Assembly (NCBI GenBank): GCA_020052375.1
Contig: JAGVPG010000002.1
Coordinates: 30,759 to 94,758, forward strand
DNA: 64,000 nt
Direction of reading: 5' to 3'
Source: Actinomycetota bacterium
GTDB lineage: Bacteria; Actinomycetota; JAHEXW01; JAGVPG01
Every line of letters starts with the position of its first letter. Within the stretch, counting starts at the first letter, position 1. A model generated the notes under the pieces. That model had not been told where the DNA came from. It saw nothing but the letters and a program-made list of their open reading frames with translations, and ran no database searches. Both the position numbers and the translations under genes were made by a program. This document shows, one piece after another, positions 55,801 through 63,795 of this stretch.

Positions 55801-57183
55801 ATGTCTGGAGAAACACAACTGGATGAAGTGTGGGGGAGGGCTCTCGGCTCTATAAAAAACAGGGTAAGCCCTCTGGCATTCAATACTTGGTTTAAAAACA
55901 CCTCGCCCGTAGCTATACACGAGGGTTTTTTCGTCGTCTCCACTCCAAACCGCTTCACAAAAGAGTGGATAGAGTCGCGTCACATGGGCTTGATAGAGAC
56001 GGCCCTGGTCGACGCCGCGGGATCTCAGATGGGAGTCAAGATCGTCGTAAGAAAAGATGTCTCCCTAGACCAACCCGCCTCCTCCGTCATGCTCGCCGCG
56101 GAGGCGACCCCACATGAAAAGGCGGACCCTCCGAAACCTCTCCGGCGGGGAACCGACCAGTTTAACCCCAGGTATATGTTTGATACGTTCGTTGTCGGCG
56201 AGGGCAACCGGTTTGCGCATGCCGCATGTCTTGCGGTGGCCGAGAATCCCGCTTCGGCATATAATCCGTTGTTCTTATATGGGGGCGCGGGGTTGGGTAA
56301 GACGCACTTGCTCCACGCAATAGGCCACCTTGGTAGGTCCTGCCACCCGGACAGCAAGGTCCGCTATGTAACTAGCGAGCGGTTCACAAACGAGTTCATC
56401 AACTCCATCCGTGATGAGCAGGCACTCGCCTTTCAAAGAAGATATAGGAGCACAGACGTTCTCCTGATAGACGATATCCAGTTCATAATAGATAAAGAGC
56501 GCACGCAAGAGGAATTCTTCCATACGTTCAATACTTTATATGAAGCACACAAGCAGATCGTTATCTCGAGCGACCGCCCGCCCAAAGACATGCCGACCCT
56601 TGAAGACCGGCTCCGCTCGCGTTTTGAGTGGGGCCTTATCGTCGACATCTCGCCCCCCGATCTTGAGACCAGGATAGCCATCTTAAGAAAGAAGTCGGAG
56701 TACAGCAACATCGGTGTTCCGGATGATGTTATTAATTTCATAGCCGGTAAGATCCAGTTCAATATCCGGGAGCTCGAGGGTGCGCTCACGAGGCTTGCCG
56801 CGTTTGCTGCTCTTACTAATAGTGAGATCGAGATCTCTCTCGCCAAAGATGTATTGAAAGAGGTCCTTCCCCAGACAAAACCAAGAGAGATATCCATCAA
56901 AGTCATACAAGCTGAGGTCGCCAGGTATTATGGCATCTCAATAGCGGACCTCACGGGCGCAGACCGCTCTCGTTTCGTCGCATATCCGCGACAGGTCTGC
57001 ATGTTCTTGTCGAGAGACTTGACGAGCCTTTCTCTTCCAAAGATAGGTGAGCTGTTCGGGGGTAGAGACCACACTACTGTCATGCACGCCGTCTCAAAGA
57101 TAGAGACGATGATAAAAAAGGATAAAGAGGCTTATAATCAGGTGCAGGAACTTACGAGTAGGATCAAACTCAAGAATTCTTGA
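55801..57183 (+). CDS. dnaA: chromosomal replication initiator DnaA
   Basis: 460 aa with AAA+ Walker A GGAGLGKTHLLHAIG, LLIDDIQF and a C-terminal DnaA-box-binding domain. Confidence 0.95.
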   Translation: MSGETQLDEVWGRALGSIKNRVSPLAFNTWFKNTSPVAIHEGFFVVSTPNRFTKEWIESRHMGLIETALVDAAGSQMGVKIVVRKDVSLDQPASSVMLAAEATPHEKADPPKPLRRGTDQFNPRYMFDTFVVGEGNRFAHAACLAVAENPASAYNPLFLYGGAGLGKTHLLHAIGHLGRSCHPDSKVRYVTSERFTNEFINSIRDEQALAFQRRYRSTDVLLIDDIQFIIDKERTQEEFFHTFNTLYEAHKQIVISSDRPPKDMPTLEDRLRSRFEWGLIVDISPPDLETRIAILRKKSEYSNIGVPDDVINFIAGKIQFNIRELEGALTRLAAFAALTNSEIEISLAKDVLKEVLPQTKPREISIKVIQAEVARYYGISIADLTGADRSRFVAYPRQVCMFLSRDLTSLSLPKIGELFGGRDHTTVMHAVSKIETMIKKDKEAYNQVQELTSRIKLKNS

Positions 57184-57392: not shown

Positions 57393-58499
57393 TTGAAATT
57401 CCAATGCGAAAGAGAAAACCTGATAAACGGTCTTCAACAATGCCAAAGAGCCATATCTACAAAAAGCATGCTCCCTATCTTAAGTGGGATATTAATCAAG
57501 AGCGATGGAAAAACACTTAACTTGAGCGCCACAGATCTTGAAATAAGTGTAAGGACGAGCATAGATGTAGAGACAAAAGAAGCGGGAAGCCTTGTGGTGC
57601 CGGCAAAATTGATCCTGGACATATTGACCAATCTCGATGAGGAAAAAGTAGAGATAAGTCTGATAAAAGAGAAAGGGCAGCTGGAGATACTGGCCGGGGA
57701 GAGCAGGTTCGATCTGAATATATTCTTTGAAGAAGACTTCCCGAAGATCCCGGAAAGCCAGGGGGAGCCCACCTGTGACCTAGACGCGGATAAAATAGGC
57801 GCAATGATAAAGGAAGTGGCAAAAGCAGCATCAAGAGACGACGCAAAACCGATGCTGACAGGGGTCTTGGTCGAGATGGAACCGACAGCGATAAAGATGG
57901 TAGCCACAGACAGCTATAGACTTGCTATCGGAGAAGACAAGCTGGACAGGGGTCCGGGTGGAAATGTAAGCATCATAATACCAGCCCGGTCTTTACGGGA
58001 ATTAAACAGGATAATCGCGACATCCGACAAGCACATAGTCTCTGTATTCTTAACAGACAACCAGGTTATTTTTAGAATCGGCGGAGTGGAGTTGATATCG
58101 AGACTTATAGAGGGGGAATTCCCGAACTATAAACAGATACTGCCCGAGGGTTATGAAAAAAAGATAAGAGTGAACAAGGGAAGGTTCCTCGGTGCGACGA
58201 AAAGGGTGTCGCTACTGGCACAGAACAATACGCCGGTAAAGGTGACGACGGCAAATAATATGATGGTCATATCGGCGAACACACAAGACGTGGGAGAGGC
58301 AACCGAGCGGATGGATGTCGAGTTCCCCGGAGAAGAAATCAAGATAGCCTTCAATCCGCAATACCTGATCGATGGTATAACCAGCGTAGAGGGAGACGAG
58401 CTGGTAATAGAGGTGCTTGATCCCTTAAAGCCGGCCCTTATAAAACCAGTGGAAAAAGACGACTTCTTATATTTGATAATGCCGATACGAGTGTCTTAG
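57393..58499 (+). CDS. dnaN: DNA polymerase III beta sliding clamp
   Basis: 368 aa with MKFQCERENLINGLQQCQRAISTKSMLPILSGILI, the classic DnaN N-terminus. Confidence 0.95.
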   Translation: MKFQCERENLINGLQQCQRAISTKSMLPILSGILIKSDGKTLNLSATDLEISVRTSIDVETKEAGSLVVPAKLILDILTNLDEEKVEISLIKEKGQLEILAGESRFDLNIFFEEDFPKIPESQGEPTCDLDADKIGAMIKEVAKAASRDDAKPMLTGVLVEMEPTAIKMVATDSYRLAIGEDKLDRGPGGNVSIIIPARSLRELNRIIATSDKHIVSVFLTDNQVIFRIGGVELISRLIEGEFPNYKQILPEGYEKKIRVNKGRFLGATKRVSLLAQNNTPVKVTTANNMMVISANTQDVGEATERMDVEFPGEEIKIAFNPQYLIDGITSVEGDELVIEVLDPLKPALIKPVEKDDFLYLIMPIRVS

Positions 58500-58503
58500 G
58501 AAG

Positions 58504-59277
58504 ATGAGCGTACTAAAGGTCGTCCTGCTTGGAGTGATCCAGGGACTGACCGAGTTCATACCGGTAAGCAGCTCCGGGCACCTTGTTTTAGCCTCTCGTC
58601 TGTTAAACATCAAAGAACTTCCTATGTATCTGAATCTTCTCATGCACACAGGGACACTTCTCGCCGTTTGTTTCTACCTGCGCCGCGATATATATAAGAT
58701 AATCAAAGAAAGAAACGCAAGAATTATATTGCTGCTTACAGCGGCAACCACCCCCGCGGTAATTGCCGGAGTTGCATTAAAGAAGTTCTTCGAACAGTTC
58801 TTCAGCGAGCCATCGATGGTGCTGGTCTTTTTAGCCGGGACCGGGGCGATACTAATCATCGGGGAGCTGGCGGGCAAAAAAACCAAAGGCTTAGACGCGC
58901 TTAATATCAAGAACGCGCTCTTTATCGGGGTGATGCAGGCTGTCGCTATCTTGCCCGGCATATCAAGGTCCGGATCGACCATGTCTGCGGGGATGATATC
59001 GGGGATGAAAAGGGAAGAAGCAGCCAAGTTCTCGTTTCTTCTATCTATCCCCATAATCCTTGGAACCACGGTATTCGAGATGAAAGACGCTTCTTTCGGG
59101 AACGGGCTAAGAGAAGTCGTGATCATCGGTGGCGCCGGGCTTGTAGCCTCGGCGGCCTCCGGGGTCTTTGCCATTACGTTCTTGATGAGGATCATAAGGA
59201 CGAGAAATTTTTATCCGTTTGCGGTATATTGTATTGCATTATCAGCCATGGGACTATTGGGGCTGTCTTTAAGATGA
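58504..59277 (+). CDS. uppP: undecaprenyl-diphosphate phosphatase UppP/BacA
   Basis: 257 aa with VIQGLTEFIPVSSSGHL and PGISRSGSTMSAG motifs. Confidence 0.9.
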   Translation: MSVLKVVLLGVIQGLTEFIPVSSSGHLVLASRLLNIKELPMYLNLLMHTGTLLAVCFYLRRDIYKIIKERNARIILLLTAATTPAVIAGVALKKFFEQFFSEPSMVLVFLAGTGAILIIGELAGKKTKGLDALNIKNALFIGVMQAVAILPGISRSGSTMSAGMISGMKREEAAKFSFLLSIPIILGTTVFEMKDASFGNGLREVVIIGGAGLVASAASGVFAITFLMRIIRTRNFYPFAVYCIALSAMGLLGLSLR

Positions 59278-60293
59278 AGGAAGCAATACTATACGACAAA
59301 CAAGATAGTGGACGAACGAAATGCCGCGTATGCCCGTGGGCTTGCAACATAGCCCCGGACAAAGCCGGCGTCTGTTGCGTAAGAAAAAACACAAACGGGA
59401 CGCTCTACGCGACGACCTACGGTATTGTATCGAGCGTAGCCGCCGACCCGATCGAGAAAAAACCCCTTTTTCATTTTCACCCGGCGAGCACAGTGTTCTC
59501 GCTCGGGTCGCTGGGCTGCAACCTCAGGTGTAAACACTGCCAGAACTGGGAGATCGCCCATGCCCGCCCGAGCGACGGCGAAGAGGCGCGCGCATACAGC
59601 TTGCCGCCGGACGCGGCGGTCAAAGAGGCCCGGTCCGCAGGATGCAAGGGGGTCGCGTGGACGTACAACGAGCCGACGATCTGGATCGAATATACACTGG
59701 ATTCAGCAAAGCTGTGCCGAGAGAAAGGGCTATACACGGTTTATGTTACGAATGGCTACACAACTGAAGAGGCACTGGACACGATGGGGCCGTTTCTTGA
59801 CGCATACCGGATGGACGTCAAAGGATATACCAGGGAGTTCTATAAAAAGCTTACCGGCATCAAAGACCCCGCTCCGATCTTTGCTGCGGCCGCAAGAGCT
59901 AAGAAAAAGTGGGGCATGCACGTAGAGATCGTCACCAACGTCATTCCCGGCTGGAACGACGACGACCACCAGCTCGAACACATCGCGACCTGGATACATA
60001 ACGAGCTCGGCGACAAAACGCCATGGCACGTCACCCGGTTCTATCCGTATCTCGAGCTAAGCGATGTTCCCCCGACTCCCACGGCCACGCTCGAGAAGGC
60101 GCGGCGAATCGGCAACGAGGCGGGGCTCAAGTTCGTCTATATAGGAAACGTTCCCGGGCACCCGGGAGAGAATACGTACTGTCCGCGATGCGGCAATGTG
60201 GCAATCGAAAGACAGGGCTACCTGATCTCCGTCTACGATGTAGCGAATGGAAAATGCAAGAAGTGCGGCGAAGACCTTGCCATAGTCGAATAA
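59274..60293 (+). CDS. AmmeMemoRadiSam-type radical SAM enzyme (PFL-activase-like)
   Basis: ATG at 59274 overlaps the uppP stop. CNLRCKHCQNWEIA radical-SAM cluster motif, plus a C-terminal CPRCG...CKKCG. Confidence 0.7.
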   Translation: MKEAILYDKQDSGRTKCRVCPWACNIAPDKAGVCCVRKNTNGTLYATTYGIVSSVAADPIEKKPLFHFHPASTVFSLGSLGCNLRCKHCQNWEIAHARPSDGEEARAYSLPPDAAVKEARSAGCKGVAWTYNEPTIWIEYTLDSAKLCREKGLYTVYVTNGYTTEEALDTMGPFLDAYRMDVKGYTREFYKKLTGIKDPAPIFAAAARAKKKWGMHVEIVTNVIPGWNDDDHQLEHIATWIHNELGDKTPWHVTRFYPYLELSDVPPTPTATLEKARRIGNEAGLKFVYIGNVPGHPGENTYCPRCGNVAIERQGYLISVYDVANGKCKKCGEDLAIVE

Positions 60294-60347
60294 GCATGTT
60301 GACTTTGTAACACCACGGAGCGTACAATCTTTAAGTAGGACATATTC

Positions 60348-60505
60348 CTCGTTAGGTGAGGCTCCAGCATAGAAACAGGCCATTGCCCAGAAACGTCCAA
60401 AGACGCCAATGGGTAGACCCGATATGACCGGCTTAAGGTTTTATCTAAAATGGCTGTCCTTAAAGGTTTGACGGACTACGGTATGCTGTGCCAAAACTCA
60501 ACGAG
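60348..60505 (+). ncRNA. M-box (ykoK-type) Mg2+-sensing riboswitch aptamer
   Basis: CTCGTTAGGTGAGGCTCC...GCCCAGAAACGTCCAAAGACGCCAATGGG...CAACGAG reproduces the conserved M-box blocks, with the P1 closed by CTCGTT/AACGAG. Confidence 0.8.
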
Positions 60506-60538
60506 AAGGGGAAGCCTAATATGCGTTCGTCTTTGTTT

Positions 60539-60570
60539 GCAAAGCTTTCCCGTGCGGGAAAGCTTTTTTA
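60539..60570 (+). terminator. intrinsic terminator (M-box expression platform)
   Basis: GCAAAGCTTTCCCG-tgc-GGGAAAGCTTTTTT hairpin plus U-tract, immediately upstream of the SD AGGAGG and the GTG start at 60587. Confidence 0.8.
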
Positions 60571-60586
60571 GTACGGAGGATGCAAG

Positions 60587-61837
60587 GTGTTTTTCTTAAG
60601 CAGGCTTCAGAGGATCAAGATCGTAGACAATATCGGAAACCGCGCCGGGTCTCTTTCAGACCTGGTGGTATCGCTTCGCGAGAAATATCCTCCGGTGACG
60701 GCGATCGTGATCAAGCCGCCCCGCCAACCAGAGGCGCTCATCCCCTGGGGACAGGTAAGGGGATTTGAAGAATCAAGGATCCTGCTGTCGCGCCCCCTTA
60801 AAGAGATCGCGACTGAAGAGATGAAGACAAACGAGATACGCCTGGTCAGAGATGTCCTTGATAAGCAGATCGTGGATACGGGGGGGCACAAACTGATCAG
60901 GGTCCAGGACGTACAACTGGCGCGCGTCGAGCGGAAAATAAGGGTCATCGCCGTAGATATCAGCGGTAGAGCTATCATGCGCAGGCTCGGGTTGACGGGC
61001 ATGTCCGACCGCCTACCGTCAAAGATCGCCCCGCACTATAACTATATAGACTGGTCGAACGTCGACCTGATCGGAAGCGGTGTAGACGCCGTAAAATTGA
61101 AAGTCCCGCACGAGAAACTGTCGCTACTACACCCGGCGGACATAGCGGACATAGTAAACGAGCTTGGTCCGGAACATAGGGTGGCGTTGCTTGAGTCACT
61201 GAGCAAAGAGGTGGCGGCGGACACGATGGAGGAGATGAGCCCATCATATCAGGCAAGCGTTCTTTCAAACATGGAGGCGCGCAAAGCGGCTGAAATACTC
61301 AAAGAGATGGAACCGGATGACGCCGCCGACCTTCTCGCGGACCTCCCCGACGAGAAGGGGGCCGAACTCCTGGGCCTGATAAAGAAGGAAGAGGCGGACG
61401 AGCTACGAGAGTTGCTGGCGCACCCGGAGGACTCGGCCGGCGGAATCATGACAACGGAATTTGTCGCCCTGCCGGCGAACTTGACAGTAGCCAAGGCGAT
61501 CACTAAATTGCGCAAGTTGGAGCCGGACGCGGAGACCATCTATTACCTTTATGTAGTCGACAAGCAAGAGCACCTACTCGGCGTCCTGTCACTAAGAAAG
61601 CTGATCGTTTCACCGCCGGACATGAAAATATCAGACATAATGTACGTAAACATAATCAAGGTAAACGTGGCAGACGAGCAAGAAGAAGTGGCAAAGCTGA
61701 TTGCCAAGTACAACTTGCTGGCCATACCGGTAGTAGACGATGAAAACAAGATCCAGGGGATCGTGACAGTCGATGACGCGATCGATGTGGTGATCCCGAC
61801 GGCGTGGAAGAAGCGCTTTCCACACATTTACAGTTAA
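60587..61837 (+). CDS. soluble MgtE-like cytoplasmic sensor protein (PRC-barrel-like N-terminus, MgtE_N domain, CBS pair), no membrane domain
   Basis: GTG start. Acidic MgtE_N-like helices (AEILKEMEPDDAADLLADLPDEKGAELL), then a CBS pair (IMTTEFVALPANLTVAKAI...LGVLSLRKLI...LLAIPVVDDENKIQGIVTVDDAIDVV). No hydrophobic segments. Confidence 0.7.
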   Translation: MFFLSRLQRIKIVDNIGNRAGSLSDLVVSLREKYPPVTAIVIKPPRQPEALIPWGQVRGFEESRILLSRPLKEIATEEMKTNEIRLVRDVLDKQIVDTGGHKLIRVQDVQLARVERKIRVIAVDISGRAIMRRLGLTGMSDRLPSKIAPHYNYIDWSNVDLIGSGVDAVKLKVPHEKLSLLHPADIADIVNELGPEHRVALLESLSKEVAADTMEEMSPSYQASVLSNMEARKAAEILKEMEPDDAADLLADLPDEKGAELLGLIKKEEADELRELLAHPEDSAGGIMTTEFVALPANLTVAKAITKLRKLEPDAETIYYLYVVDKQEHLLGVLSLRKLIVSPPDMKISDIMYVNIIKVNVADEQEEVAKLIAKYNLLAIPVVDDENKIQGIVTVDDAIDVVIPTAWKKRFPHIYS

Positions 61838-61885
61838 GGAGAAATCGAGGATGTCAAAGAAGACAAGCCAGGAGGACGAAGTCCG

Positions 61886-63139
61886 ATGGCGTGGCATAAA
61901 AGGATCAGCTGGCGCAACGCCTTGCTCATACTTGCGGTCATCGGACCTGGCATCATCACGGCCAATGTCGACAACGACGCAGGCGGAATCGCCACGTACT
62001 CTATCGTCGGCGCCCACTTCGGTTACCGGCTTCTCTGGCTTTTCGTCCCCATTGCCGTAACCCTGATAATAGTCCAGGAGATGGCGGCCAGGCTCGGCGT
62101 TGTCTCCGGCAAGGGGTTTGCGGACCTCATCCGCGAGAACTTCGGCATCAAGGTCACCTTCTATCTTATGGCGACACTGCTGGCAGTAAACCTGGCCAAT
62201 ACGATGGCGGAGTTTGCGGGGTGGGCTGCGAGCATGGAGATATTCGGCGTCGCAAGATATATAGCGGTACCCGTCGCCGCCTTATTGGTGTGGCTCCTGG
62301 TTGTCCGGGGAAGGTACAGGTTCGTAGAGCGGATATTTCTTTTCGCGTCGGCAGTTTATATCACGTATATAGTCTCGGGACTATTGGCCAAGCCCGATTG
62401 GGGCAAGGCGCTCCATCAGACCCTGGTCCCCTCTGTCTCGATGGGCAACGCGTACCTGGTCGCGACGGTCGCCCTGATAGGTACGACGATCGCCCCGTGG
62501 ATGCAGTTCTATCTCCAGTCCGCCGTAGTCGAGAAAGGCGTAAAGACAGATCAGTATCCGGCAACAAAAATAGACGTCATAGTCGGATGCATCATGGCGA
62601 ACGTCGTGGCGGTCTTTATCGTAGTCGCCTGCGCCGCGACGTTGTTTAAAAACGGGATAATGGTTGAATCAGCCAAAGACGCAGCGCTGGCGCTTAAGCC
62701 CCTTGCCGGGAAATATGCAGCCCTCTTGTTCGCCATCGGCCTGGCCAACGCATCTTTGTTTGCGGCGTCCATACTGCCGTTGTCGACCGCCTATTCCGTT
62801 TGTGAGGGCATGGGCTGGGAAGGCGGAGTGAACACGACCTTTAGAGAGGCGCCCCAGTTCAACTGGATCTACACCGGACTGATAGTGCTAGGCGCGGGGA
62901 TAGTCCTTATCCCGGGAGTGCCATTGCTGATGATCCTTTATTGGTCTCAGGTGCTTAACGGGGTGTTGCTGCCCGTAACGATAGCGGTAGCTCTTATCCT
63001 GGTCAACAAGCCCGAGATAATGGGCGACAAGGTCAATTCGAAGGGTTACAATTTTGTCGCCTGGGCGGCAGCGGCAGCTACCGGCATCGCCTCTATTATG
63101 ATGGTCTTGACAATGGTCGCGCCGGGCCTTTTCAATTAG
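61886..63139 (+). CDS. NRAMP/SLC11-family divalent cation transporter with non-canonical metal site (NRMT-like)
   Basis: 417 aa, 11-12 TM. The TM1 motif is VDNDAGGIAT rather than DPGN, and the TM6 motif is TIAPWMQFY rather than MPH. Confidence 0.75.
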   Translation: MAWHKRISWRNALLILAVIGPGIITANVDNDAGGIATYSIVGAHFGYRLLWLFVPIAVTLIIVQEMAARLGVVSGKGFADLIRENFGIKVTFYLMATLLAVNLANTMAEFAGWAASMEIFGVARYIAVPVAALLVWLLVVRGRYRFVERIFLFASAVYITYIVSGLLAKPDWGKALHQTLVPSVSMGNAYLVATVALIGTTIAPWMQFYLQSAVVEKGVKTDQYPATKIDVIVGCIMANVVAVFIVVACAATLFKNGIMVESAKDAALALKPLAGKYAALLFAIGLANASLFAASILPLSTAYSVCEGMGWEGGVNTTFREAPQFNWIYTGLIVLGAGIVLIPGVPLLMILYWSQVLNGVLLPVTIAVALILVNKPEIMGDKVNSKGYNFVAWAAAAATGIASIMMVLTMVAPGLFN

Positions 63140-63354
63140 AGGATCGAGACAATATTGCAACAATCTCCTACCCGCGTCTTCCCTCGTCGTAAAGACGTTT
63201 TTTTATTGAATAAAGCACTGTGTAACCACAAGCTATATTGACTTTTTTAGCTGTATATGGTAGGAATGAATTAGAGAATTTAATATTTTGGCGGGCTTGC
63301 TGAAGATCTTTATCAGTATTATAGAAACATAGAACTGGATAGAAAATCAGGAAG

Positions 63355-63795
63355 CTAGGAAGCACAGCTTTTATATGGTCACTTTGGTTGTGCCGAGCTA
63401 ATAGTGAAACCGGCCCCGAGGCCGGTTTGTGGTTTAAATAGGGAAAGCTTAATTAAAGTGAGCACGACATAAGCTGAAGAAGGCATGTGTAAGAAAGCGT
63501 CTTAGGACTTAAACAGACTTAATTGTGCAGCACAGGTTGTTATAGTGGGCTTGCGCCAGCGATAATTGAAAAATAAATAAAGAGGCAAGAAGACAAGGCT
63601 CTTTTATACAGGATGCGATGAAGTACAGCTCGTGATTGGTCACTTGGGTTGTATGGAGCAAATAGTGAAACCGGCCCACCGGCCGGTTTGTGCTTTTTAT
63701 AGGGGATGTTTAATTAGAATGAAAGAAACTAAGAATATATCTGTTAAGCGGAAGGAAAGATAAATAAGTATAGTCGGAGTTAAACAGACTTAAAT
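63355..63795 (+). repeat. tandem duplicated ~260-bp intergenic unit, each with an AAACCGGCC-nnnn-GGCCGGTTT hairpin plus T-tract
   Basis: Shared blocks GGTCACTTGGGTTGT, AATAGTGAAACCGGCCC..GGCCGGTTTGTG, TTAATTAAA and TTAAACAGACTTAA occur in both units. Hairpins at 63406..63428 and 63666..63688. Confidence 0.6.

Follow-up and report, generated by a model that had tools for sequence, protein, structure and literature searches.

The locus described here raises the question of whether a soluble MgtE-like protein and an NRAMP-type membrane protein, encoded side by side behind a Mg2+ riboswitch, form a split two-component Mg2+ transporter, as the initial annotation of this DNA proposed, or a transporter with a separate regulator. 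The window, the whole stretch of DNA analyzed, is 64 kb long and comes from an uncultured host. The initial annotation knew of no study of such a split sensor–transporter system. In fact, operons made of an M-box, a gene for a cytoplasmic fragment of MgtE and nrmT were already described by Shin et al. (2014, PLoS Genet, PMC4072509), and the locus is therefore a further example of a published operon type. That study found a homologue of the MgtE cytoplasmic domain encoded ahead of most NrmT-group genes, often with an M-box in control, and it demonstrated both Mg2+ complementation and M-box control for Clostridium acetobutylicum members. The present locus is very probably such an M-box/mgtE-fragment/nrmT operon. 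Its best explanation, with a probability of roughly 0.85, is a two-gene Mg2+-uptake operon of the C. acetobutylicum type in which the accessory protein is likely a post-translational regulator. Because this type was already published in 2014, the locus leaves the picture of Mg2+ homeostasis unchanged.

The leader upstream of the two genes contains the following features.

60299–60328, plus strand: sigma-70-like promoter candidate, TTGACT-18 nt-TACAAT (consensus scan, 10/12 matches)
60341–60517, plus strand: M-box (ykoK-type) Mg2+ riboswitch aptamer (Rfam RF00380)
60508–60515, plus strand: proposed switching strand GGGGAAGC, the 3′ strand of aptamer helix P1 (putative role)
60541–60569, plus strand: intrinsic terminator AAAGCUUUCCC-GUGC-GGGAAAGCUUU plus U tract (minimum-free-energy leader fold)

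The aptamer matches RF00380 with 141.4 bits (E 6.7e-32), above the gathering score of 44. The covariance-model match spans positions 1–169 of 169, which is the whole aptamer, and the start first annotated for the locus, 60348, lies 7 nt inside it. The promoter candidate, a pattern match only, ends ~12 nt upstream of the riboswitch. The terminator is an 11-bp hairpin with the loop GUGC and a U6 run behind it, and the hairpin alone folds with −16.2 kcal/mol. In the covariance-model alignment (cmscan), 60508–60513 are assigned to P1. The strand 60508–60515 can alternatively pair with the terminator 5′ arm GCUUUCCC (60544–60551), forming 8 bp with a duplex energy of −12.7 kcal/mol. A terminator 5′ arm able to pair with the P1 3′ strand is the arrangement expected of an RF00380 expression platform. 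We predict that the M-box is a Mg2+-responsive transcription terminator switch. Transcription would probably start near 60335 and read into the M-box. At high cytoplasmic Mg2+ the aptamer would compact and helix P1 would hold the strand GGGGAA(GC); with this strand held, hairpin 60541–60569 would form and transcription would stop before the genes. At low Mg2+ the strand would be free to pair with the terminator 5′ arm as a putative antiterminator, allowing read-through into ORF1 and ORF2. The RNA family and the logic are those of the Bacillus subtilis ykoK (mgtE) M-box, where the terminator forms at high Mg2+. The B. subtilis M-box controls mgtE, whereas the one here controls a two-gene nrmT operon.

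The coding part of the operon is arranged as follows.

60587–61837, plus strand: ORF1, soluble accessory protein, 416 aa, GTG start (profile searches)
61870–61875, plus strand: ORF2 ribosome-binding site AGGAGG, 10 nt before the ATG (sequence read)
61886–63139, plus strand: ORF2, NRMT/NrmT-type SLC11 transporter, predicted Mg2+ importer, 417 aa (Pfam and EleNRMT alignment)
63174–63204, plus strand: weak terminator-like hairpin and U7 run at the end of the operon (fold −6.9 kcal/mol, then UUUUUUU)

A GGAGG at 60575–60579 stands 7 nt upstream of the GTG start of ORF1 at 60587. The two genes lie on the same strand, and the gap between them is exactly 48 nt, as annotated.

ORF2 matches the Nramp family PF01566 with 318.7 bits over positions 1–356 of 357, which indicates the Nramp (LeuT-type) fold. 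Its best solved relative is EleNRMT (7qia), with 372 bits, E 3.6e-110 and 49% identity over 386 ungapped residues, while Mn2+ NRAMPs (MntH/DraNramp and similar chains) reach ~102 bits or less. The MntH model NF001923 gives 137.5, far under its cut-off of 430. The motifs D-A-G-G and A-P-W, already read from the sequence in the initial annotation, are D31-A-G-G34 in TM1 and T200-T-I-A203-P-W in TM6. In the ungapped alignment, D31, G34, T200, A203 and Q355 correspond to D55, G58, T224, A227 and Q379 of EleNRMT. The D/G/T/A/Q site is thus the same as in the Eggerthella lenta protein (PDB 7QIA/7QIC/7QJI/7QJJ; Ramanadane et al. 2022, eLife, PMC8806188), and ORF2 carries the full NRMT signature: the Asp is kept, Asn is replaced by Gly in TM1, Ala by Thr and Met by Ala in TM6, and there is Gln in TM10. 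Canonical Mn2+ binding-site residues are ruled out by the same alignment. Mutation of the EleNRMT counterparts of these five residues affects Mg2+ transport, and with the Ala mutant of T224, the equivalent of T200, Mg2+ transport is no longer detectable (PMC8806188). By homology to these tested relatives, ORF2 would be an NRMT-type SLC11 carrier importing Mg2+ and probably Mn2+ too. The 372-bit match, the identical site residues and the strong M-box in front support Mg2+ as the substrate, as had been proposed. EleNRMT was characterized by itself, and there is no mention of a riboswitch or an operon partner in PMC8806188.

ORF1 had been described as a soluble, poreless protein with MgtE_N and a CBS pair behind a PRC-like N-terminus, and the profile searches agree. 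MgtE_N (PF03448) covers residues 181–282 with 102.4 bits, the CBS pair (PF00571) covers about residues 285–402 with 64.5 bits, and PRC (PF05239) covers residues 1–58 with 28.9 bits (cut-off 21.2). The N-terminal ~170 residues form two PRC-barrel-like domains, about 1–75 and 83–170, and both the sequence-profile match and the small β-barrel fold place them in the PRC-barrel group. The remainder has the cytosolic MgtE fold, and the protein ends in a basic tail, WKKRFPHIYS. The profile search of ORF1 gave no match to the MgtE membrane domain PF01769, and there is no membrane segment, the highest 19-residue Kyte–Doolittle mean being 1.17. The mgtE model TIGR00400 scores 218.5, under its cut-off of 232.75, and covers only model positions 24–254 of 450. 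Tblastn of the whole window with fused-type and canonical MgtE membrane-domain queries found no such coding sequence and matched only the cytosolic part of ORF1, which excludes a cryptic MgtE membrane domain elsewhere in the window. These results exclude ORF1 from the MgtE transporters. The partial, sub-threshold TIGR00400 match would suit a decaying, functionless remnant of a split or truncated mgtE. However, the frame of 416 codons is intact, thousands of full-length homologues share the same architecture, and an alignment of 57 sequences at 51–88% identity has 65 invariant columns. The lack of an MgtE membrane domain in the entire window also speaks against the remnant explanation, and the conservation of ORF1 effectively refutes it. 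On the best explanation, ORF1 is a soluble derivative of the MgtE regulatory region.

Compared with the cytosolic region of Thermus thermophilus MgtE (PDB 2YVY/2YVX/2ZY9), ORF1 has the extra N-terminal double PRC barrel and has neither the membrane domain nor the acidic plug helix. The MgtE residues E59, D91, D95, D247 and D250 map to D212, D244, D248, D397 and D400 of ORF1. All 57 homologues have D244, D248 and D397, and nearly all have D212 and D400. The acidic residues of sites Mg4, Mg6 and Mg7 are thus retained, suggesting that ORF1 binds Mg2+. At site Mg5, D226 is replaced by Asn (N376). The plug-helix residues E258 and D259 (sites Mg2/Mg3) have no acidic counterpart in ORF1, and the basic WKKR tail is found there instead. 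In MgtE, these plug-helix residues couple the sensor to the pore. With N376 and no acidic plug-helix counterpart, the MgtE coupling mechanism is therefore not simply transferable to ORF1. At the ATP site of MgtE, Y170 and R187 are kept, and D188K, N203Y and F227L are changed; because three of the five side-chain contacts differ, we do not claim ATP binding by the CBS pair.

The co-occurrence check suggested for the pair showed that the pairing is conserved. An NRMT-type gene lies directly downstream in 62 of the 78 informative loci with an ORF1 relative (79%), and in the reverse sample an accessory gene stands upstream of all five ORF2 relatives. The pairs are separated by tens of nucleotides or overlap, with a median gap of ~32 nt. 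All partners of the accessory carry D-A-x-G and GTTx[AT]P[WY], and DPGN/MPH occurs in none. This pattern bears on whether the accessory is an independent soluble sensor of Mg2+ or a nucleotide, with a target other than the transporter. Its PRC barrels might then dock another protein or an RNA–protein complex, and it would share the operon only since both products are needed at the same low Mg2+. In 9 of the 78 loci the accessory is present with no Nramp gene within ~3 kb, so it can have an existence independent of the transporter. For one locus (L011), identity to the window is 70% for ORF1 and 49% for ORF2, which argues against tight co-evolution of the two proteins. Nevertheless, we consider an independent sensor unlikely: the transporter follows immediately in most loci, all partners are NRMT-type transporters, with no canonical Mn2+ NRAMP among them, and in other organisms the same module is covalently joined to a Mg2+ pore.

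The M-box is not a general feature of the pair. It was counted in pairs with at least 350 nt of upstream DNA, and only 6 of these 49 have one; among the loci found through ORF2 it is present in three of five. Homologous M-boxes occupy the same position in L001, L009, L011, L012, L026, L093, L094 and L096. The low count would suit a different physiological substrate of ORF2, Mn2+ or another transition metal, with ORF1 sensing that metal. In Acidobacterium capsulatum, the NrmT-group member encoded next to an MgtE-like gene acted as a Mn2+ transporter (PMC4072509), and EleNRMT was assayed for Mn2+ as well as Mg2+ transport (PMC8806188). At the window locus, however, the M-box is strong and ORF2 has exactly the EleNRMT site, including T200. 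Moreover, in a neighbor-joining tree of ORF1 relatives, although poorly resolved, the M-box-bearing loci are the clade nearest the window. A transition metal in place of Mg2+ is improbable here. The tree was built from the MgtE_N and CBS region with the aim of deciding whether the accessory derives from a PRC-bearing MgtE. Canonical MgtEs are nested inside it, and it supports only the clustering of the M-box loci with the window and of the fused proteins (below) as one group.

Among the closest known systems are the Ca_c0685 locus of C. acetobutylicum and its relatives, with the same gene order of M-box and terminator, MgtE-like gene and NrmT-group transporter (PMC4072509). ORF1 agrees with the accessory of Shin et al. 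in being a soluble MgtE-cytoplasmic homologue, co-oriented and immediately upstream of an NrmT-group gene. The Ca_c0685 accessory is split into two genes, whereas here it is one gene of 416 aa. ORF1 has the double PRC-like N-terminus, while a PRC barrel is unmentioned in PMC4072509. The host differs as well from C. acetobutylicum, the nearest genome matches of the window being NC10-like and other MAGs. Searches for PRC barrels with MgtE, and for NrmT with MgtE after 2014, returned nothing on the accessory in the searchable literature.

The role proposed for the accessory of the C. acetobutylicum operons, cytoplasmic feedback, is the same as here; in PMC4072509 this regulation by the MgtE-like protein is speculation, and co-expression of the one pair, from A. 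capsulatum, had no effect. Ca_c0685 and Ca_c3329 alone complement Mg2+ uptake (PMC4072509). Since published NrmT/NRMT proteins, including EleNRMT, transport Mg2+ without an accessory (PMC4072509, PMC8806188), the accessory is at most a regulator, and the term two-component transporter overstated the case. Shin et al. offered a chaperone or stability role as an alternative to regulation (PMC4072509). The accessory would then chaperone or buffer metal, or aid the folding, insertion or stability of the transporter, and would not be a gate; the many conserved acidic residues of MgtE_N could bind several Mg2+ ions. However, with free Mg2+ in the millimolar range there would seem to be little use for a stoichiometric chaperone or buffer, and the transporters work without the accessory in heterologous hosts (PMC4072509). 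We regard these roles as improbable, to about the same degree as a transition-metal substrate, and favor regulation.

The most likely role of ORF1 would be a second, post-translational control, in which ORF1 closes like a clamp when Mg2+ is high and holds the transporter back, just as this module closes the pore of MgtE. By this analogy, gating of ORF2 by ORF1 in trans is conceivable, though we put it at somewhat less than an even chance. In MgtE the cytosolic domain acts in dimeric form, around a pore that is itself a dimer. NRMT is not known to form a comparable assembly, and EleNRMT was reportedly solved as a monomer. Coupling of the module to a pore is seen in seven metagenomic proteins of ~650 aa, in which PRC, MgtE_N and CBS are fused to a genuine MgtE membrane domain.

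L047, L057, L062, L063, L065, L070 and L089, metagenomes: fused PRC-MgtE proteins

These fusions have the same three-part cytosolic module, ~40% identical to ORF1 residues 1–402. Unlike the poreless ORF1, they extend into a true MgtE pore domain (PF01769), and no Nramp gene lies next to them. They demonstrate that pore coupling of the module is possible. A still more tentative suggestion is that PRC, MgtE_N and CBS make up a portable Mg2+-sensing gate, which elsewhere is fused to the MgtE pore and here would act as a subunit of its own on an SLC11 carrier of the unrelated LeuT fold. The conserved WKKR tail and/or the PRC barrels might dock the gate onto the carrier, taking over from the acidic plug helix. 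Two Mg2+ uptake machines of unrelated structure would in that case be under the control of a single regulatory module. If ORF1 gates an SLC11 carrier in trans, a channel and a secondary transporter would have one sensor module in common, which is rare, and the structural and kinetic work on NRMT would have been done on a transporter without its regulatory subunit. Added here to the published operon type are the N-terminal double PRC barrel of the accessory, the fusion of its module to real MgtE pores, and the retention of sites Mg4/Mg6/Mg7 with the plug helix replaced by a basic WKKR. The barrel, the fused relatives, the retained site residues and the basic tail provide experimental handles on the accessory.

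At the other end of the operon, the hairpin at 63174–63204 probably closes the transcription unit. Both operon terminators were missed by a simple terminator scan, the leader terminator because three of its U's were counted inside the stem, and both were recovered by sequence reading and folding.

The operon opens with a complete M-box riboswitch. An Rfam search matches the full RF00380 model at 60341-60517 on the forward strand with 141.4 bits (gathering score 44). The initial annotation had rightly called this riboswitch, though with its start a few bases too far in, at 60348; terminator and two genes 48 nt apart are present as it described them, by folding and sequence reading.

Elements of the operon other than the aptamer
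ending at 60328, +, promoter-like TTGACT-18-TACAAT, found by pattern
60541-60569, +, terminator AAAGCTTTCCC-GTGC-GGGAAAGCTTT-TTT, an 11-bp hairpin then a U run, 3' of the aptamer
60575-60579, +, ribosome-binding site GGAGG of ORF1, 7 nt 5' of GTG 60587
60587-61837, +, ORF1 (MgtE-like soluble accessory), GTG start, 416 codons, frame read
48-nt spacer between ORF1 and ORF2, +, containing AGGAGG, from the sequence
61886-63139, +, ORF2 (NRMT-type transporter), ATG start, 417 codons, frame read
63174-63204, +, weak hairpin and U7 run, 3' of ORF2

The start of ORF1 is backed by homologues with the same first residues, MFFLS or MFYLS. The terminator hairpin (-16.2 kcal/mol) is kept in the minimum-free-energy fold of the entire leader. 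The 3' strand of P1 (GGGGAA, 60508-60513) lies inside an 8-nt stretch, 60508-60515, that is able to pair with the terminator 5' arm at 60544-60551 (-12.7 kcal/mol in folding). Because of this overlap, a Mg2+-compacted aptamer would let the terminator fold. From sequence and folding we infer transcriptional control of the operon by the standard M-box scheme, in which high Mg2+ would compact the aptamer and free the terminator to form, while low Mg2+ would give read-through into ORF1 and ORF2. In the leader's minimum-free-energy fold, 60524-60536 pairs with 60570-60584, which holds the GGAGG of ORF1, and encloses the terminator hairpin; this pairing could add translational masking, and may equally be a folding artefact.

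ORF2 belongs to the Nramp family (318.7 bits in a profile search). Its closest solved relative is EleNRMT, the Mg2+ transporter of Eggerthella lenta (PDB 7QIA), at 372 bits versus at most 102 bits for Mn2+ transporters. The two align ungapped over 386 residues with 49% identity, and D31, G34, T200, A203 and Q355 of ORF2 are identical to D55, G58, T224, A227 and Q379 of EleNRMT. In EleNRMT, Thr224 is an extra ligand whose Ala mutant has no detectable Mg2+ transport, and Gly58 stands where Mn2+ transporters have Asn (PMC8806188). The site is of the NRMT type rather than the canonical Mn2+ type, as had been read from the sequence. Together with the riboswitch in front, the shared functional residues predict that ORF2 imports Mg2+, and we judge the earlier assignment of this substrate to be right.

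ORF1 also agrees with its first description as an MgtE_N and CBS protein behind a PRC-like N-terminus. Profile searches place MgtE_N at residues 181-282 (102 bits) and two CBS domains up to residue 402; the N-terminal PRC barrel is a weaker match. The mgtE model TIGR00400 stays below cut-off, with only positions 24-254 of 450 matched. The PF01769 membrane domain has no match in ORF1, which also lacks any hydrophobic stretch (highest 19-residue Kyte-Doolittle mean 1.17), and no MgtE membrane-domain coding sequence, cryptic or otherwise, was found across the whole 64-kb window. The metal sites of Thermus thermophilus MgtE (TtMgtE) were transferred to ORF1 through a HMMER alignment anchored at I28, I84, I190 and I242.

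Metal-site residues of TtMgtE and their counterparts in ORF1
Mg7: E59, D212
Mg4: D91 and D247, D244 and D397
Mg6: D95, D248
Mg5: D250, D400; D226, N376

D244, D248 and D397 do not vary across the family, and D212 and D400 hardly do. The sensor of TtMgtE is linked to its pore by E258 and D259 of the plug helix (sites Mg2 and Mg3). ORF1 has no acidic residue matching either of them, by a correspondence extrapolated past the aligned block, and its C-terminal tail, WKKRFPHIYS, is conserved and basic. On Mg2+, the N and CBS domains of ORF1 could still be clamped to each other, but its coupling to a target would have to be unlike that of MgtE. Of the side chains that contact ATP, Y170 and R187 are retained; D188, N203 and F227 are replaced by K, Y and L, and ATP binding by ORF1 is therefore not assumed.

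A one-genome-per-species scan gave five full-length ORF1 relatives, with an NRMT-type gene following in three and not in two (Ktedonobacterales). A metagenome scan with the family alignment added 80 loci and exact look-ups three more; the non-redundant set holds 87 loci, 78 of them with sufficient downstream DNA to judge. A same-strand NRMT-type gene lies directly downstream in 62 of the 78 (median estimated gap ~32 nt), seven encode ~650-aa proteins in which PRC, MgtE_N and CBS run on into a genuine MgtE membrane domain, and nine are stand-alone accessories; conversely, five ORF2 relatives of 60-71% identity, including Dissulfurispira thermophila, Geomesophilobacter sediminis and a Coriobacteriia MAG, all have an MgtE_N-CBS gene immediately upstream, and these fractions, which bear out the proposed co-occurrence, are indicative only, as sampling favoured relatives of the window. 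All partner transporters carry D-A-[GSTQPA]-G in TM1 and G-T-T-x-[AT]-P-[WY] in TM6; DPGN/MPH motifs occur in no partner transporter of the paired loci. The M-box is not a general feature of the pairs. Among pairs for which 350 nt or more of upstream DNA is available, it precedes 6 of 49; the figure is 3 of 5 for reverse-sampled loci and 0 of 15 for non-paired loci. A neighbour-joining tree built on the shared region groups the window in one clade with the comparison loci L001, L009, L011, L012 and L026; L029, whose M-box match is contig-truncated only, is placed elsewhere.

The locus is of an already known operon type and is not a new system. Shin et al. 2014 (PMC4072509) took M-boxes 5' of Nramp-related genes as their starting point and named the group NrmT. 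Ca_c0685 and Ca_c3329 of C. acetobutylicum restored a Mg2+-transport-deficient B. subtilis, and many of the MgtE-like fragment genes were reported to be both under M-box control and co-transcribed with the transporter (PMC4072509). The initial annotation knew of no study of such a pair, wrongly, as its idea is a speculation published there. Its two-component transporter overstates the accessory, since complementation did not require the fragment (PMC4072509). The observation stands, and its interpretation is supported in part. As the fused PRC-MgtE proteins show, control of a pore is compatible with the PRC, MgtE_N and CBS module. The most likely role of ORF1 is feedback inhibition of ORF2 in trans, to which we give a probability of about 0.4. 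Next comes an independent sensor, an unlikely reading to which the stand-alone copies lend support, as does the A. capsulatum pair, whose co-expression gave no better rescue (PMC4072509). The A. capsulatum transporter itself acted as a Mn2+ importer (PMC4072509). A chaperone or stability role is more improbable still. Shin et al. do not mention a PRC barrel, whereas ORF1 has a double one; the EleNRMT paper mentions neither partner nor riboswitch (PMC8806188). In the literature searched there was no later work on the accessory and no paper treating a PRC barrel together with MgtE. This analysis adds, modestly, the double PRC barrel, the fused relatives, a comparison of the metal-site and ATP-site residues one by one, and approximate co-occurrence counts; within its class the locus is unremarkable.

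The stand-alone accessories are L004 5001-6266 and L005 123-1388 (Ktedonobacterales MAGs), L024, L027, L037, L046, L055, L068 and L087. They have no Nramp gene within ~3 kb and no M-box, and their neighbours vary (CTP synthase, histidine kinase, MFS transporter). The ~650-aa fusions (L047 1814-3769, L057 3001-4944, L065 3001-4968, L062, L063, L070 and L089) are full-length MgtE channels extended at the N-terminus by a PRC barrel, and are ~40% identical to ORF1. In L094 (1190-2995), from a Coriobacteriia MAG, the accessory has 601 aa, ~185 residues above the usual, with the usual Pfam domains, an M-box in front and NRMT downstream.

Upstream of the operon, at a distance of ~3 kb, are dnaA (55801-57183) and dnaN (57393-58499). 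Two genes fill the interval, one BacA/UppP-like (58504-59277) and one probably for a radical-SAM protein (59229-60293), both labelled from syntenic loci; the listed TTG start of the latter is probably too early, with a 49-nt overlap with the preceding gene. L011 and L096 repeat the dnaN, BacA, M-box, accessory, Nramp and radical-SAM neighbourhood, with the radical-SAM gene on the opposite side. In L011 (5001-7517) the accessory is 70% identical to ORF1 and the transporter only 49% to ORF2, with D-A-Q-G in TM1, T-T-I-T-P-W in TM6 and Ala for the TM10 Gln. This discordance suggests an exchange of transporters between accessory lineages. Downstream of the operon, two c-di-GMP-II riboswitch aptamers stand in tandem ~260 nt apart (63350-63415 and 63611-63676, forward strand), scoring 57.7 and 52.2 bits; the gathering score is 53.5, which leaves the second slightly below threshold. 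A GC-rich hairpin with a T run (63668-63689) comes after the second, and downstream of it an ORF with a signal-peptide-like start runs from ATG 63829 until cut by the window end.
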